Assembly: GCF_056746865.1 (NCBI RefSeq)
Contig: NZ_CM163382.1
DNA length: 64,000 bases
Reading direction: 5' to 3' (one strand)
How positions within the stretch are numbered: position 1 is the stretch's first letter; every line of letters begins with the position of its first letter. The notes under the pieces are model-generated. The model was given only the letters and a program-made list of their open reading frames with translations. It did no database searches and was not told the DNA's origin. Shown here one piece after another: positions 19,441 through 25,528 of this stretch. A program made the position numbers and the translations under genes.

Positions 19441-20331
19441 TTAATACTCGAGAATGCCGTGCGCGACGGGCAAATAGCGCAGAGAGAAATAGAGCGTGTC
19501 TTTACCGCAAGAGGAACGTTTCGCTAACAGCGAGGCAATTTCTGCGTCCGGTTTCGGTTTCGCTGTAAAGGTTTTGCCTTTGCCGGCGACAAACAGTTCA
19601 TAAACAATGCCGCTTGCTGGGGCGGAACTCTGGCAATCGGCGCTGGCCTGTAGATAACGTTCACGCTGTTCAGCGGTAAGTTTATTCACGCCGCTGCCAT
19701 CCTGTACCCAGACATTAACGCCGGTTGCTTTAACGTGTTCCAGCAGTTGGCGATAGCCATCGGGCGACATGTTTCCGGCGAAAAAACTACTGATATAAAC
19801 CGGTTTTGCTGAAACATCGCTAATCAACCGCTGAGCGTTGTTTAACCATGTCAGCAAAGGTTGACGGGCGGCTTCGCTGCGCCAGTTCAGGTCGTCAATT
19901 TCCGCGCTGATATACCAGCCATCCGGCGTTACGCCAGGCGCGGCGCTCCATAATCTGGCTTGCTGGAGATCGGCAGCCAGCAGGCGATTAAGATAGCTTT
20001 CCAGCGCCGCGGATGACTGTTTCTGGTGCATAAAAAATTCCGGATCGGCATTCAGCCCGACAATCAGCTTCAGGCCAGCCTGTTGCGCAGCTGCTGCACG
20101 CTTAAACAATAACGCGCGCTGTTCTGGCTGGGTGAATGCATCGCCGTAACGGGTCCATTGCAAAACCAGGGTATCGAAGCCTTGCAAACGTAACTGACTC
20201 ATCAGCCCCTGCCACTGGGTATCGGTAACCTGACTATCACGGTTTTGTGGTTGCCAGATAATACCTTTCATCGCAAAGGAAAAAGGGCTGACCAAAAGCA
20301 GTGTCAGCAATACGAAAATGAACTTACGCAT
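19441..20331 (-). CDS. ybcH: Periplasmic protein YbcH (296 aa), third gene of the nfrB-nfrA-ybcH operon
   Basis: 296-aa ORF with signal peptide; start ATG abuts the nfrA stop codon; matches E. coli YbcH. Confidence 0.8.
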   Translation of the reverse strand: MRKFIFVLLTLLLVSPFSFAMKGIIWQPQNRDSQVTDTQWQGLMSQLRLQGFDTLVLQWTRYGDAFTQPEQRALLFKRAAAAQQAGLKLIVGLNADPEFFMHQKQSSAALESYLNRLLAADLQQARLWSAAPGVTPDGWYISAEIDDLNWRSEAARQPLLTWLNNAQRLISDVSAKPVYISSFFAGNMSPDGYRQLLEHVKATGVNVWVQDGSGVNKLTAEQRERYLQASADCQSSAPASGIVYELFVAGKGKTFTAKPKPDAEIASLLAKRSSCGKDTLYFSLRYLPVAHGILEY

Positions 20332-23304: not shown

Positions 23305-25528
23305 TTTCGGACTCCAGTTGCGCAACCTGTTCTGTGTTTAAACCTGCTTTGAGTAATAGTGATTGCATCGAAACTTGTAATTCGCGTTGAATTGTCAGGA
23401 CGCGATCCAACGTTTCCTGGCTGATAACGCCTTCGGTGACCAAAAACTTGCCGAGCGGCAGAGAACTGCGTTCATGGCGCAATAACAACACGTTAATTGC
23501 TGAACGATTAATATGACCGAGCGTGGTCAGTATTTCGGCGAACAGGAACTGATGCGGCACATATTGCCGCCAGATTTCACCGGCCTGCTGTTCCGTGAGC
23601 CACTGATGCTGAACCGCATTGTACAACATTGCCCGCGGATCGTGACCGCGTCGGCGCGCATACCAGTGGCGTAACCCCGTGACAATTTGTCCCCGCAGAA
23701 CAATGACGTAACGCACTTTGCGTCCGACTTTACGCGTCAGGGCCGCCAGCGAAACCGGGTCAATACCATCTTCACTGCCGACAATTAACTCATCATTTTC
23801 CAGACGCAGCGGCAGCACTGCATAATGCAGCGCCACGGAGGCCGGCATTTCGGCAATCAGTGATGAAGGGATCTGCCAGGCGTCGATCGACTCCCACGCC
23901 ACGCCGTTTTGCTCTGCCAGCGCCTGTGCCAGCTGTTCGGCGCTAATCAGCCCCTGCATCAGCATTGAACCGCCCAGGCGTAGACCTTCGACGCGATTAC
24001 GCAGTGCTGTATCGAGTTGTTCTTCAGTGATGACCTGATTTTCCAGCAGGATTTGACCTAACGGACGCAACGAGCGGGTATCGCCAGTCACGCTGGGGAA
24101 GTCATGCGTTGTTTTATCCCACGCGACACGACGTGGATCGCCGTGTTGAAGTACCTGTTTTAACGCGCGCCAGTTGGCCATGAAGTTAATCAGGTTGCCC
24201 CAGAAAAGACGCAGGACAGATAGCAGCCCCTGCGTCAGGCCGTAGTAGCCAGTAACGAAAATCACCCGCTGCACGATGCGGTTAATCATCAAGCCAAAGT
24301 TTAGCCACAGCAGAGTCATTAACCATGCGCTGCCGCTGAAAATAGAAAGGAAATGCCAGGCATCGGGCCACAAACTTTCATACGCCAGCAACAGCAAAAG
24401 CTGGATCATCACCAGCATCGCGAGGAAGCTGACAAAGTTACTGATTGCCCCTTTGCGGTCGCGCCAGAGAAAGTAGTTCAGCGTCAGACTGGAGGTCCAT
24501 TTGTGGGTTTTAAAGCCCTGGAAAACAATGCCGATGATCCAGCGAGATTTTTGTCGAACCGCAGTCGAAAAGGTATCGGGGAAATATTCGCGCACGCAGA
24601 TCATGTTTGACGTCCGCGCGTGCTGTAAAAATTTACGCTGCTCGCGTTCTTTGGCTTCGTCCACCACCGGAAAACGGACAAAAATTTCCGTCATACCTTT
24701 TTCTTTCAGGCGGAAACCAATGTCGTAATCTTCAGTAAGACTCTGCACGTCGAAAGCAATACCATCACCGTCAGCTAACAGTGCGGTCACGGCGCGGCGG
24801 CTGAAACAAGTACCGACGCCTGCGCTGGGCACCTGTCCGGCGAGGGCTTCACGCACCGGAACATCTATGCCATGCAGTTCTGAAAACTCATCAATGTAAG
24901 TCATGCTGGTGAAGTGCGTCCATTCGCGTTCGAATGGGTATACCGGGATCTGAATCAGATCTTTACGCTCGACCAGATAGTTGAACAGACGCAATTCCAT
25001 CGGTGAAATTACGTCTTCGGCGTCATGCAGAATAAAACCAGCAAAAGCGAAATTGGCGCTACGCTCAAACTGGGTGATGGCGTCCAGCACGTTGTTCAGG
25101 CAGTCGGCTTTGCTGGTGGGGCCAGGACGCGCGCAGACTACCTTATGCACGTTTGGGAAGCGAGCGCACACTTCGTCAACATCACGCTGAGTATCGGGGT
25201 CGTTGGGGTAGGTGCCAACAAAGATATGATAGTTTTCATAGTCGAGCGTGGTCGCCGCCAGCTCGGCCATATTGCCGATGACGCCCGTTTCATTCCACGC
25301 CGGAACCATAATCGCTAACGGTTTTTCATCTGGTTTATACAGTTCGCGGTAACTCATTCGCGGGTAGCGGCGATAAACACTCAACTTGCGTTTAATGCGG
25401 CGTACCCAGTAGACGACATCAATAAAAAAATCGTCCAGCCCGCTGATGAACATGATGACCGCTAACGTTATCGCGATTACTTTTAAGCCGTAGAGCCAGG
25501 TAGCAAAAACATCAAGAAGCCAGTCCAC
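23291..25528 (-). CDS. nfrB: NfrB: inner-membrane family-2 glycosyltransferase with C-terminal cytoplasmic regulatory domain (745 aa)
   Basis: 745-aa ORF, N-terminal TM helix, GT2-like core; 14-nt overlap with nfrA start; matches E. coli NfrB. Confidence 0.9.
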   Translation of the reverse strand: MDWLLDVFATWLYGLKVIAITLAVIMFISGLDDFFIDVVYWVRRIKRKLSVYRRYPRMSYRELYKPDEKPLAIMVPAWNETGVIGNMAELAATTLDYENYHIFVGTYPNDPDTQRDVDEVCARFPNVHKVVCARPGPTSKADCLNNVLDAITQFERSANFAFAGFILHDAEDVISPMELRLFNYLVERKDLIQIPVYPFEREWTHFTSMTYIDEFSELHGIDVPVREALAGQVPSAGVGTCFSRRAVTALLADGDGIAFDVQSLTEDYDIGFRLKEKGMTEIFVRFPVVDEAKEREQRKFLQHARTSNMICVREYFPDTFSTAVRQKSRWIIGIVFQGFKTHKWTSSLTLNYFLWRDRKGAISNFVSFLAMLVMIQLLLLLAYESLWPDAWHFLSIFSGSAWLMTLLWLNFGLMINRIVQRVIFVTGYYGLTQGLLSVLRLFWGNLINFMANWRALKQVLQHGDPRRVAWDKTTHDFPSVTGDTRSLRPLGQILLENQVITEEQLDTALRNRVEGLRLGGSMLMQGLISAEQLAQALAEQNGVAWESIDAWQIPSSLIAEMPASVALHYAVLPLRLENDELIVGSEDGIDPVSLAALTRKVGRKVRYVIVLRGQIVTGLRHWYARRRGHDPRAMLYNAVQHQWLTEQQAGEIWRQYVPHQFLFAEILTTLGHINRSAINVLLLRHERSSLPLGKFLVTEGVISQETLDRVLTIQRELQVSMQSLLLKAGLNTEQVAQLESENEGE

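Follow-up and report, generated by a model that had tools for sequence, protein, structure and literature searches.

An intact nfrB-nfrA-ybcH operon beside a decayed toxin/immunity island in Escherichia coli, and a possible hydrolase role for YbcH

The closest described relative of the locus studied here is nfrBA-ybcH of E. coli K-12 (b0569-b0567; Junkermeier & Hengge 2021, Sellner et al. 2021). In this Nfr system, characterised in 2021, NfrB is a c-di-GMP-activated GT2 synthase, NfrA a TPR/beta-barrel pore and YbcH a periplasmic accessory protein; UDP-ManNAc is probably polymerised by NfrB into the N4 glycan receptor, which is exported via NfrA (PMC8669469, PMC8669472). The receptor requires WecB and no other ECA gene, and DgcJ shows specificity for the c-di-GMP signalling of the Nfr system, which produces the NGR polymer (PMC8669469, PMC8669472). 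RB-TnSeq data confirm the function of the system. The operon decides the susceptibility of E. coli to N4-like and several other phages (Vequintavirinae, phi92-like), as already published, and its status matters in the choice of therapeutic phages.

The operon and its products

We identify the region, with near certainty, as the chromosomal nfrB-nfrA-ybcH operon of E. coli, intact and encoding a synthase-dependent exopolysaccharide system. Its genes lie in the order B-A-H on one strand of the window, the whole 64,000-nucleotide stretch of DNA that was analysed:

23291-25528, minus strand: nfrB, 745 aa, GTG start (from the list of open reading frames)
23291-23304, minus strand: nfrB/nfrA 14-nt overlap, ATGAAGGAGAATAA (direct reading of the sequence)
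20332-23304, minus strand: nfrA, 990 aa, ATG start
20329-20334, minus strand: nfrA stop/ybcH start junction, TAAATG (direct reading of the sequence)
19441-20331, minus strand: ybcH, 296 aa, ATG start, DUF4434 periplasmic accessory protein

The longest open reading frame of nfrA runs from an upstream TTG (20332-23325), but the real start is the ATG at 23304. Direct reading places this ATG at 23304-23302 and the nfrB TAA at 23293-23291, a 14-nt overlap, and has the last base of the nfrA TAA at 20332, immediately before the ybcH ATG at 20331 (junction TGGTAAATG, 0-nt spacer); together with the open reading frame list, this makes the overlap and the abutting codons described in the initial annotation exact to the base. 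A GGAG Shine-Dalgarno motif precedes each of these two ATG codons, at a distance of 7 nt for nfrA and 11 nt for ybcH. The same gene names and coordinates are found in RefSeq genomes 100% identical over 19000-26500 and in K-12 MG1655, for which the 14-bp overlap has been published (PMC8669469). Within the scopes searched, there was no Rfam match (15000-40000), no tandem repeat (19000-26500) and no tRNA (window). The operon is well studied, and its identity, function and overlap are already known; nothing is new there.

Since overlapping or abutting genes are usual in operons, the overlap is statistically unremarkable, and the "strict co-translation" first read into it is an over-reading. The overlaps do make translational coupling plausible, which is why the authors of PMC8669469 left the nfrB 3' end untagged. 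Judging from the gene layout, translation of all three genes is probably coupled through the 14-nt overlap and the 0-nt junction, both of which are preceded by a GGAG motif. An epimerase-GT2-NfrA_C-DUF4434 order with overlapping junctions is kept in a distant metagenomic operon.

NfrB is an inner-membrane, c-di-GMP-activated family-2 glycosyltransferase. It matches Pfam Glyco_trans_2_3 (1.5e-39; PF13632 and PF13641 both matched) and MshEN (3.9e-14), passes the NCBIfam equivalog NF008411 (1328 bits against a cut-off of 1170) and scores 66 bits with the NCBIfam c-di-GMP_motif model, in agreement with the glycosyltransferase and regulatory domain first assigned to it. The DxD/TED/QxxRW signatures of processive glycosyltransferases are present (D169, TED265-267 and QKSRW326-330). 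The C terminus, singled out earlier for domain analysis, proved to be an MshEN domain with its c-di-GMP-binding residues: L490, G491, L537 and the RLG..Q motif at 517-540 are all there, and residues 486-626 match MshE and PilF domains in the PDB (5htl, 8pdk, 5tsg and others; E values 5.7e-17 to 1.8e-04). Two of the 745 residues differ from K-12 (K221I and V415I; 99.7% identity), and D169, D267, W330, L490, G491 and L537, whose mutation in K-12 abolished N4 plating, are all kept. The K-12 protein binds c-di-GMP with a Kd of about 1 uM (PMC8669469).

NfrA is an outer-membrane TPR and beta-barrel exopolysaccharide pore and the phage N4 receptor protein. An N terminus resembling a signal peptide (MKENNLNRVIGWSGLLLTSLLSTSALA) is accompanied by TPR families and NfrA_C (PF13283, 1.4e-67), bearing out the initial assignment; the protein passes the equivalog NF007302 (1888 bits against 1223, NCBIfam) and differs from K-12 by ten residues, without gaps (99.0% identity).

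A view held before 2021, which follows the original genetic interpretation of nfr mutants, takes NfrA and NfrB simply as protein receptors for N4, with no glycan, and the NCBIfam NfrA model is still named "phage receptor". We consider it very improbable: mutants of NfrB in the glycosyltransferase active site (D169A, D267A and W330A) and in the MshEN domain block N4 plating without lowered NfrB levels, so both are needed for plating (PMC8669469), and WecB is required where other ECA genes are not. These published data already refute the protein-receptor view for NfrB, while NfrA may be the terminal receptor. The initial claim that the system is needed for N4 adsorption is thus supported by the literature for nfrB and nfrA. 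It does not extend to ybcH: YbcH is dispensable for N4 infection and contributes only partly to the motility phenotype (PMC8669469), and therefore not all three genes are "required".

In our reading of the pathway, the GT2 domain of NfrB polymerises a sugar, most likely UDP-ManNAc supplied by WecB, and polymerisation is turned on by binding of c-di-GMP, made locally by DgcJ, to the C-terminal MshEN domain. Export of the polymer falls to NfrA, in which a TPR array in the periplasm is joined to a beta-barrel in the outer membrane. At the surface, this polymer (NGR) is the receptor that phage N4 and several other phages use first, with NfrA probably acting as the terminal one. In this strain, the receptor may lie masked under O-antigen or capsule.

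Variable flanks and the upstream region of nfrB

The operon aligns with K-12 at 98.6% nucleotide identity without gaps. Among 5,426 complete genomes, 5,294 matched it, all but one (5,293) at 95-100% identity, and its genes are under strong purifying selection (dN/dS 0.014, 0.069 and 0.064). In strain MA11, nfrA is interrupted by a stop at codon 657. The operon is core genome, and both flanks are strain-variable and functionally unrelated to it. The "hotspot" of variation proposed in the initial annotation therefore describes the flanks, which do vary between strains, but not the conserved operon (dN/dS 0.01-0.07). On the prophage side, the features are:

18497-19258, minus strand: envY; no other gene separates ompT/appY, at the end of the prophage region, from the operon
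17030-17983, minus strand: ompT
16031-16780, plus strand: appY
1-17983: lambdoid prophage tail genes, then appY and ompT, at the position of K-12 DLP12 (annotation of the near-identical strain 118UI, RefSeq)

A prophage does lie on this flank, and envY, ompT and appY stand between its structural genes and the operon. The annotated DLP12 of K-12 extends to a point between ompT and envY, and in MA11 and EC_J_9 a tRNA-Arg is directly beside envY, with no prophage (argU site). Strain 118UI does not match the window throughout: the window has an extra IS2 (32757-34086) and small prophage differences.

The other flank contains the following features:

25529-25670, minus strand: nfrB-proximal upstream region, 142 nt, zero mismatches to K-12
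25671-37751, no strand: accessory island, 12.1 kb, absent from K-12; degenerate T6SS/Rhs-type orphan toxin/immunity region with many IS elements
25671-25786: nfrB-proximal island terminus, 116 nt, common to many island variants (in 940 of 5,426 genomes)
28179-29469, island: ISAs1/ISEc1
29691-30152, island: SUKH-3 (Pfam)
30330-31620, island: second ISAs1/ISEc1 copy, with a split transposase
32757-34086, island: IS2
34498-34812, island: Tox-PAAR-like (Pfam)
37084-37383, island: Tox-GHH2 (Pfam)
37752-39200, minus strand: cusS, 482 aa

K-12 aligns gaplessly to 15375-25670 and again from 37774, which places 12.1 kb of low-GC DNA between nfrB and cusS and agrees with the adjacent accessory island noted at the outset. 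Its GC content is 31-43% in most 1-kb windows and higher across the IS2 insertion. The island boundary falls in the last codons of cusS, so that the CusS C terminus reads ...VIVLPERE* here and ...VITLPA* in K-12. Polymorphic toxin/immunity domains are represented by Tox-GHH2, Tox-PAAR-like and SUKH-3, while neither VgrG nor an Rhs core with a C-terminal toxin was found in 25671-37751: the island is a decayed remnant interrupted by IS2 and the two ISAs1-family copies. In other E. coli, the cusS-nfrB interval holds a complete vgrG-Rhs island or nothing, the empty K-12-type site occurring in about 43% of complete genomes; in MA11 and EC_J_9, an ISAs1-family element directly follows the 116-nt terminus. 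We found no name in the literature for this cusS-nfrB vgrG/Rhs island, and nothing links the operon functionally to it.

The initial annotation had suggested comparing the nfrB promoter region with K-12; the comparison shows 142 identical nucleotides with the island beyond, and any proximal promoter and ribosome-binding site must be inside this segment. It contains no match to the sigma-70 consensus of at least 9 of 12, and no convincing promoter emerged in it when the operon, the island edge and the K-12 spacer were scanned for sigma-70 and terminator consensus patterns; internal matches in the consensus scans were at or below the number expected from shuffling. FliA/FlhDC activation, RpoS repression and temperature control were established with the only published nfrB reporter, which carries 1,499 bp of K-12 upstream DNA, beginning inside cusS and including nearly all of it. 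A search of the 1.5 kb preceding nfrB, both in K-12 and in the window, for a sigma-28 promoter (TAAAGTTT-N11-GCCGATAA) gave one notable match, a perfect -10 element (GCCGATAA) in cusS. It stands 623 nt upstream of the gene in K-12; the copy in the window, at 38231, is 12.7 kb away. We treat this site as a lead and do not claim a direct FliA (sigma-28) promoter for nfrB, given its poor -35 (4 of 8) and its absence from the sites named in the FliA ChIP-seq main text and from the RpoF SELEX table (PMC5493296).

These observations bear on whether the operon, although intact, is regulated differently from K-12, either because the island displaces a cusS-side promoter or read-through, or because H-NS-type silencing spreads from the AT-rich island. 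With 12.1 kb of island placed between cusS and nfrB, a promoter located in or upstream of cusS in K-12 would be displaced here, as would read-through from there; this includes the cusS -10 element. Only 142 nt separate the nfrB GTG from the island; in K-12, the cusS-nfrB interval is free of terminator-like hairpins, and the island has one on the nfrB strand (25993-25974). However, the proximal 142 nt match K-12 at every position, an RpoH holoenzyme SELEX peak has been reported in that K-12 spacer (PMC5493296), and the sigma-28-like site is weak and unlisted. Moreover, more than half of complete genomes have island-bearing configurations, NGR-dependent infection works in the pathogenic strain UTI89 (PMC8669472), and the dN/dS values show that the genes are maintained by selection. 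We thus regard changed regulation as unlikely. In our reading, this strain carries an intact and presumably functional copy of the operon, with variable DNA starting 142 nt upstream of nfrB.

Fold and possible activity of YbcH

The initial description of YbcH as a periplasmic protein is correct. DUF4434 (PF14488, 7.5e-69) covers residues 21-291, the whole mature protein, and the equivalog NF007404 is passed (521 bits against a cut-off of 344, NCBIfam). Five residues differ from K-12 (98.3% identity). The predicted structure is a confident glycoside-hydrolase-like TIM barrel, (beta/alpha)8, and its neighbours in structure comparison are nearly all active glycosidases. E144 falls within strand 138-145 (strand 4) and E245 at the end of strand 241-245 (strand 7), matching the positions of the acid/base (strand 4) and the nucleophile (strand 7) of clan GH-A. 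Neither glutamate varies in sets of 33 and 50 homologues, and they make up two of only eight invariant columns in the alignment of 50. Periplasmic hydrolases or lyases are encoded in nearly all synthase-dependent exopolysaccharide systems (Bcs, Pga, Psl, Pel and Alg).

The predicted fold and the invariant glutamates suggest that YbcH is a hydrolase rather than a scaffold. On these grounds, we tentatively propose, as a real possibility short of an even chance, that YbcH is an active periplasmic glycoside hydrolase with E144 and E245 as catalytic residues, founding a GH family, so far undescribed, with specificity for the ManNAc-based N4 glycan receptor. This non-essential accessory protein would then trim or release the polymer, a role that we liken to those of BcsZ, the PgaB C-terminal domain, PslG and PelA in related systems.

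YbcH could instead be a non-catalytic periplasmic scaffold or adaptor, its TIM barrel serving as a binding module only, which we hold to be possible but somewhat doubtful. PMC8669469 calls it a putative scaffold. The Asn-Glu ("NE") motif of clan GH-A is absent, E144 being preceded by Ala in E. coli and by Glu in the wider consensus; YbcH is therefore not to be filed as a canonical member of that clan. Furthermore, sequence comparison with the PDB gave no relative whose activity is known, and the top match in structure comparison, 4h41_A, is an uncharacterised protein from structural genomics. The one paper found to mention DUF4434 deals with lateral gene transfer and not with its function. Against a purely binding role stand the placement of two of the few invariant residues exactly at the catalytic positions of clan GH-A, the glycosidase neighbours and the hydrolase or lyase that such systems usually encode.

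If the hydrolase proposal is true, YbcH would supply the "trimming" step missing from the Nfr pathway and could also be used as a reagent to solve the structure of the polymer. The analysis makes two questions explicit: where the nfrB promoter lies, given a reporter spanning a cusS gene that is 12 kb away here and in many strains, and whether YbcH is the hydrolase of the pathway.

Comparison with known systems

The K-12 operon has identical genes, order, lengths, start and stop codons, overlap and TAAATG junction; apart from 17 conservative amino acid substitutions in total, only the context differs, with cusS 149 nt upstream of nfrB in K-12 and the 12.1-kb island between them in the window. 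At the same site, the T6SS vgrG-Rhs islands of MA11 and EC_J_9 contain vgrG, a DcrB-like gene, an Rhs core, orphan toxin fragments and ISEc1.

The MshE and PilB/PilF ATPases of type IV pili share with NfrB the MshEN domain and its 24-residue RLGxx(L/M)Lxx G(L)(I)xxxxLxxxLxxQ motif; there, the domain is fused to a secretion ATPase, whereas in NfrB it is fused to a glycosyltransferase. Among the synthase-dependent systems for cellulose (BcsA/B/Z/C), PGA (PgaABCD) and alginate (Alg8/44/K/E), the c-di-GMP receptor is PilZ (BcsA and Alg44) or the PgaC/D interface. In contrast, Nfr uses MshEN, its presumed substrate is UDP-ManNAc, and the E. coli system has neither a BcsB-like nor a co-polymerase subunit.

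Organization and conservation of the nfr operon

The ORF list contains, exactly as in the initial annotation, three minus-strand genes:

19441-20331, minus strand, ybcH, 296 aa
20332-23304, minus strand, nfrA, 990 aa counted from the ATG
23291-25528, minus strand, nfrB, 745 aa, GTG start

In the mechanical list, nfrA starts instead at an in-frame TTG (23325) upstream of the ATG. Direct reading of the junctions bears out both the 14-nt nfrB/nfrA overlap (nfrA ATG at 23304-23302, nfrB TAA at 23293-23291) and the abutment of nfrA and ybcH, with the ybcH ATG directly following the nfrA TAA (TGGTAAATG). 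A GGAG lies 7 nt 5' of the nfrA ATG and 11 nt 5' of the ybcH ATG. Because of these overlaps and Shine-Dalgarno positions, translational coupling of the three genes is plausible; the strict co-translation proposed in the initial annotation goes beyond what the junctions support. A similar layout is found in a distant Nfr-like operon of metagenome scaffold ERZ23491061 (68-6229), in which a WecB-like epimerase gene is followed by GT2, TPR/NfrA_C, and DUF4434 genes overlapping by 8, 20, and 44 nt. Its GT2 protein (465 aa) has no MshEN domain, and its DUF4434 protein shares just 24% identity with YbcH; the shared layout would support selection on the arrangement.

The Nfr system was described in two 2021 mBio papers, by Junkermeier and Hengge (PMC8669469) and Sellner et al. 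(PMC8669472), so that the present locus is a textbook-level operon at its normal chromosomal place, known in detail down to the 14-bp overlap of nfrB and nfrA in nfrBA-ybcH (PMC8669469). NfrB binds c-di-GMP through its MshEN domain (Kd of ~1 µM), DgcJ is its specific activator and also binds it, and mutants in either the GT site or MshEN block N4; the FLAG tag site was chosen to leave NfrA initiation undisturbed (PMC8669469). N4 plating requires both NfrB and NfrA, whereas YbcH is dispensable and has only a partial part in the motility effect (PMC8669469). Sellner et al. reached the same model, named the polymer NGR, found WecB to be the sole ECA-pathway member required, an indication that the polymer is ManNAc based, and demonstrated NGR use by several other phage groups besides N4 (PMC8669472). 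A 2025 RB-TnSeq preprint agrees with both papers, the role of ybcH again being partial. The N4-receptor glycan function given for this system in the initial annotation is therefore correct (PMC8669469, PMC8669472), and the initial annotation was essentially right in both observation and interpretation.

Domain searches matched NfrB to GT2 (1.5e-39), MshEN (3.9e-14), and, weakly, DUF4388; NfrA to NfrA_C (1.4e-67) and several TPR families; and YbcH to DUF4434 (7.5e-69), each protein scoring above its NCBIfam equivalog cutoff. The proposed check of the NfrB C terminus revealed an MshEN domain with all key residues, matching the c-di-GMP-binding domains of MshE and PilF in solved structures. Every NfrB residue at which mutation abolished N4 plating in the K-12 protein is retained, both in the GT site (D169, D267, and W330) and in MshEN (L490, G491, and L537). 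TED265-267 and QKSRW326-330 are likewise present, and the 24-residue MshEN motif (517-540) is complete.

Many RefSeq E. coli chromosomes match 19000-26500 at 100% identity; in these, ybcH, nfrA, and nfrB are named DUF4434 family protein, bacteriophage adsorption protein, and cyclic di-GMP-activated glycosyltransferase, respectively. This stretch occurs in 5,294 of 5,426 complete genomes, at 95 to 100% identity in all except one. From appY to 142 nt 5' of nfrB, the window aligns to K-12 MG1655 without gaps (98.6% identity). All start and stop codons agree, and residue changes number 2 in NfrB (K221I and V415I), 10 in NfrA, and 5 in YbcH. Since dN/dS against K-12 is low for nfrB (0.014), nfrA (0.069), and ybcH (0.064), all three genes, the "dispensable" ybcH included, are under strong purifying selection. 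In E. coli MA11, a premature stop at codon 657 makes nfrA (3883-6855 of its locus) a pseudogene, so that the N4 receptor pathway has been lost in a natural strain; MA11 also carries a full vgrG-Rhs island and lacks the argU prophage.

The variable flanks

The K-12 alignment ends at 25670 and restarts at 37774, and the island edge on the far side coincides with the last codons of cusS (37752-37773): CusS here has 482 aa and ends in VIVLPERE, versus 480 aa and VITLPA in K-12. The intervening DNA (25671-37751) is low in GC and contains the following:

25865-26401, minus strand, ATG ORF of 178 aa, at the edge of the "promoter region" of the initial annotation
30330-31620, second ISAs1/ISEc1 copy, split, transposase in two ORFs (30340-30996 and 31006-31476)
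32757-34086, IS2 (TnpA 33631-34041, TnpB 32768-33673), breaking a hypothetical island gene
34866-35906 and 36018-37058, two 346-aa paralogues, WD40/YVTN/BNR-like repeat proteins according to PGAP
within the island, one intact ISAs1/ISEc1 copy
within the island, a Tox-GHH2 nuclease-toxin fragment, a Tox-PAAR-like fragment, and a SUKH-3 immunity gene

The 346-aa paralogues (~91% identity over 728 nt) matched no Pfam or NCBIfam model; adjoining toxin fragments, they may be immunity proteins. Several further island ORFs gave no family match. In strain 118UI, the counterpart of the second ISAs1/ISEc1 copy is intact and IS2 is missing, that part of the window being otherwise 99.7 to 100% identical. 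The 178-aa ORF, which matched nothing in Pfam, is unlikely to be a gene: although identical in 118UI, it is unannotated there by RefSeq, which calls instead a 56-aa plus-strand ORF (26076-26246).

In both MA11 and EC_J_9, this site is occupied by a complete vgrG-DcrB-like-Rhs array that includes orphan toxins and has ISEc1 at its end. The island of the window, with its toxin/immunity fragments and IS copies, is therefore a decayed T6SS effector/immunity island. Of the 5,426 complete genomes, 2,326 have the empty K-12-type junction, 940 the 116-nt nfrB-proximal island terminus of the window, and 157 the exact window junction (at least 80% of 25450-25900 covered).

On the other side, envY adjoins tRNA-Arg directly in MA11 and EC_J_9, with no prophage, while the window and K-12 alike have a prophage whose end carries appY and ompT. 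It is accurate to describe the operon as conserved and the sites on its two sides as variable; no functional link of the nfr operon to either flank was found. AT skew is unusually high at 4001-5000 (0.32) and 12001-13000 (0.40), 1-kb windows that correspond to prophage tape-measure and tail-fiber genes. Divergence from K-12 shifts sharply at the envY/ybcH intergenic region (15375-19375 versus 19375-25375), from 0 to 5 differences per 500 nt over appY-ompT-envY (2 in the 954 nt of ompT) to 5 to 15 over ybcH-nfrA-nfrB. This pattern suggests that the prophage-end block was swapped recently between lineages and that the nfr divergence would be that of the ordinary core genome.

The nfrB upstream region

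As the K-12 match ends at 25670, the presumed promoter region (25529-25864) comprises two parts: the 142-nt spacer 5' of the nfrB GTG (25529-25670), identical to K-12, and 194 nt of island DNA, beginning at 25671, with no K-12 equivalent. The operon is expressed post-exponentially and at a low level, more strongly at 37°C, with FlhDC/FliA dependence and RpoS repression, as measured with an nfrB::lacZ fusion beginning 1,499 bp 5' of nfrB (PMC8669469). The fusion primer maps to position 14678 of the K-12 locus, near the cusS 5' end, so that the promoter responding to FliA, RpoS, and temperature could lie at any point in cusS or the spacer. In the K-12 spacer and cusS, no strong sigma-70 match and no terminator-like hairpin was found.

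A real regulatory difference from K-12 caused by the island is unlikely, even though two features would favor it. A terminator-like hairpin lies on the nfrB strand at 25993-25974, within the island and inside the 178-aa ORF, and a perfect sigma-28 -10 element (GCCGATAA, minus strand, weak -35) inside cusS, 623 nt 5' of nfrB and within the reporter fragment in K-12, is conserved at 38231-38238, here 12.7 kb from nfrB. However, the main text of a FliA ChIP-seq study mentions neither cusS nor nfrB, and the RpoF SELEX table has no peak at this site; a weak RpoH peak is the only one listed in the nfrB-cusS spacer (PMC5493296). Promoter position relative to this very common insertion is one aspect of residual value in the locus.

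YbcH as a predicted hydrolase

The other is the predicted nature of YbcH, which is viewed in the literature as a putative scaffold. An AlphaFold2 model from a 33-sequence alignment (pLDDT of 92.9, pTM of 0.90) proposes eight strand-helix units after a hydrophobic helix at the N terminus. An exhaustive profile search retrieved 803 relatives. When 50 of these, with identities as low as 22%, were aligned, only eight columns were invariant, two of them being the glutamates that close strand 4 (E144) and strand 7 (E245). YbcH is most likely a periplasmic hydrolase processing the polymer, a predicted role consistent with a phenotype that is accessory and non-essential. Enzymes of clan GH-A have their acid/base at the end of strand 4, normally directly preceded by Asn, and their nucleophile at the end of strand 7. 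Because no Asn precedes E144, YbcH was not filed under this clan; what it shares with GH-A enzymes is the position of both Glu residues, E144 and E245.
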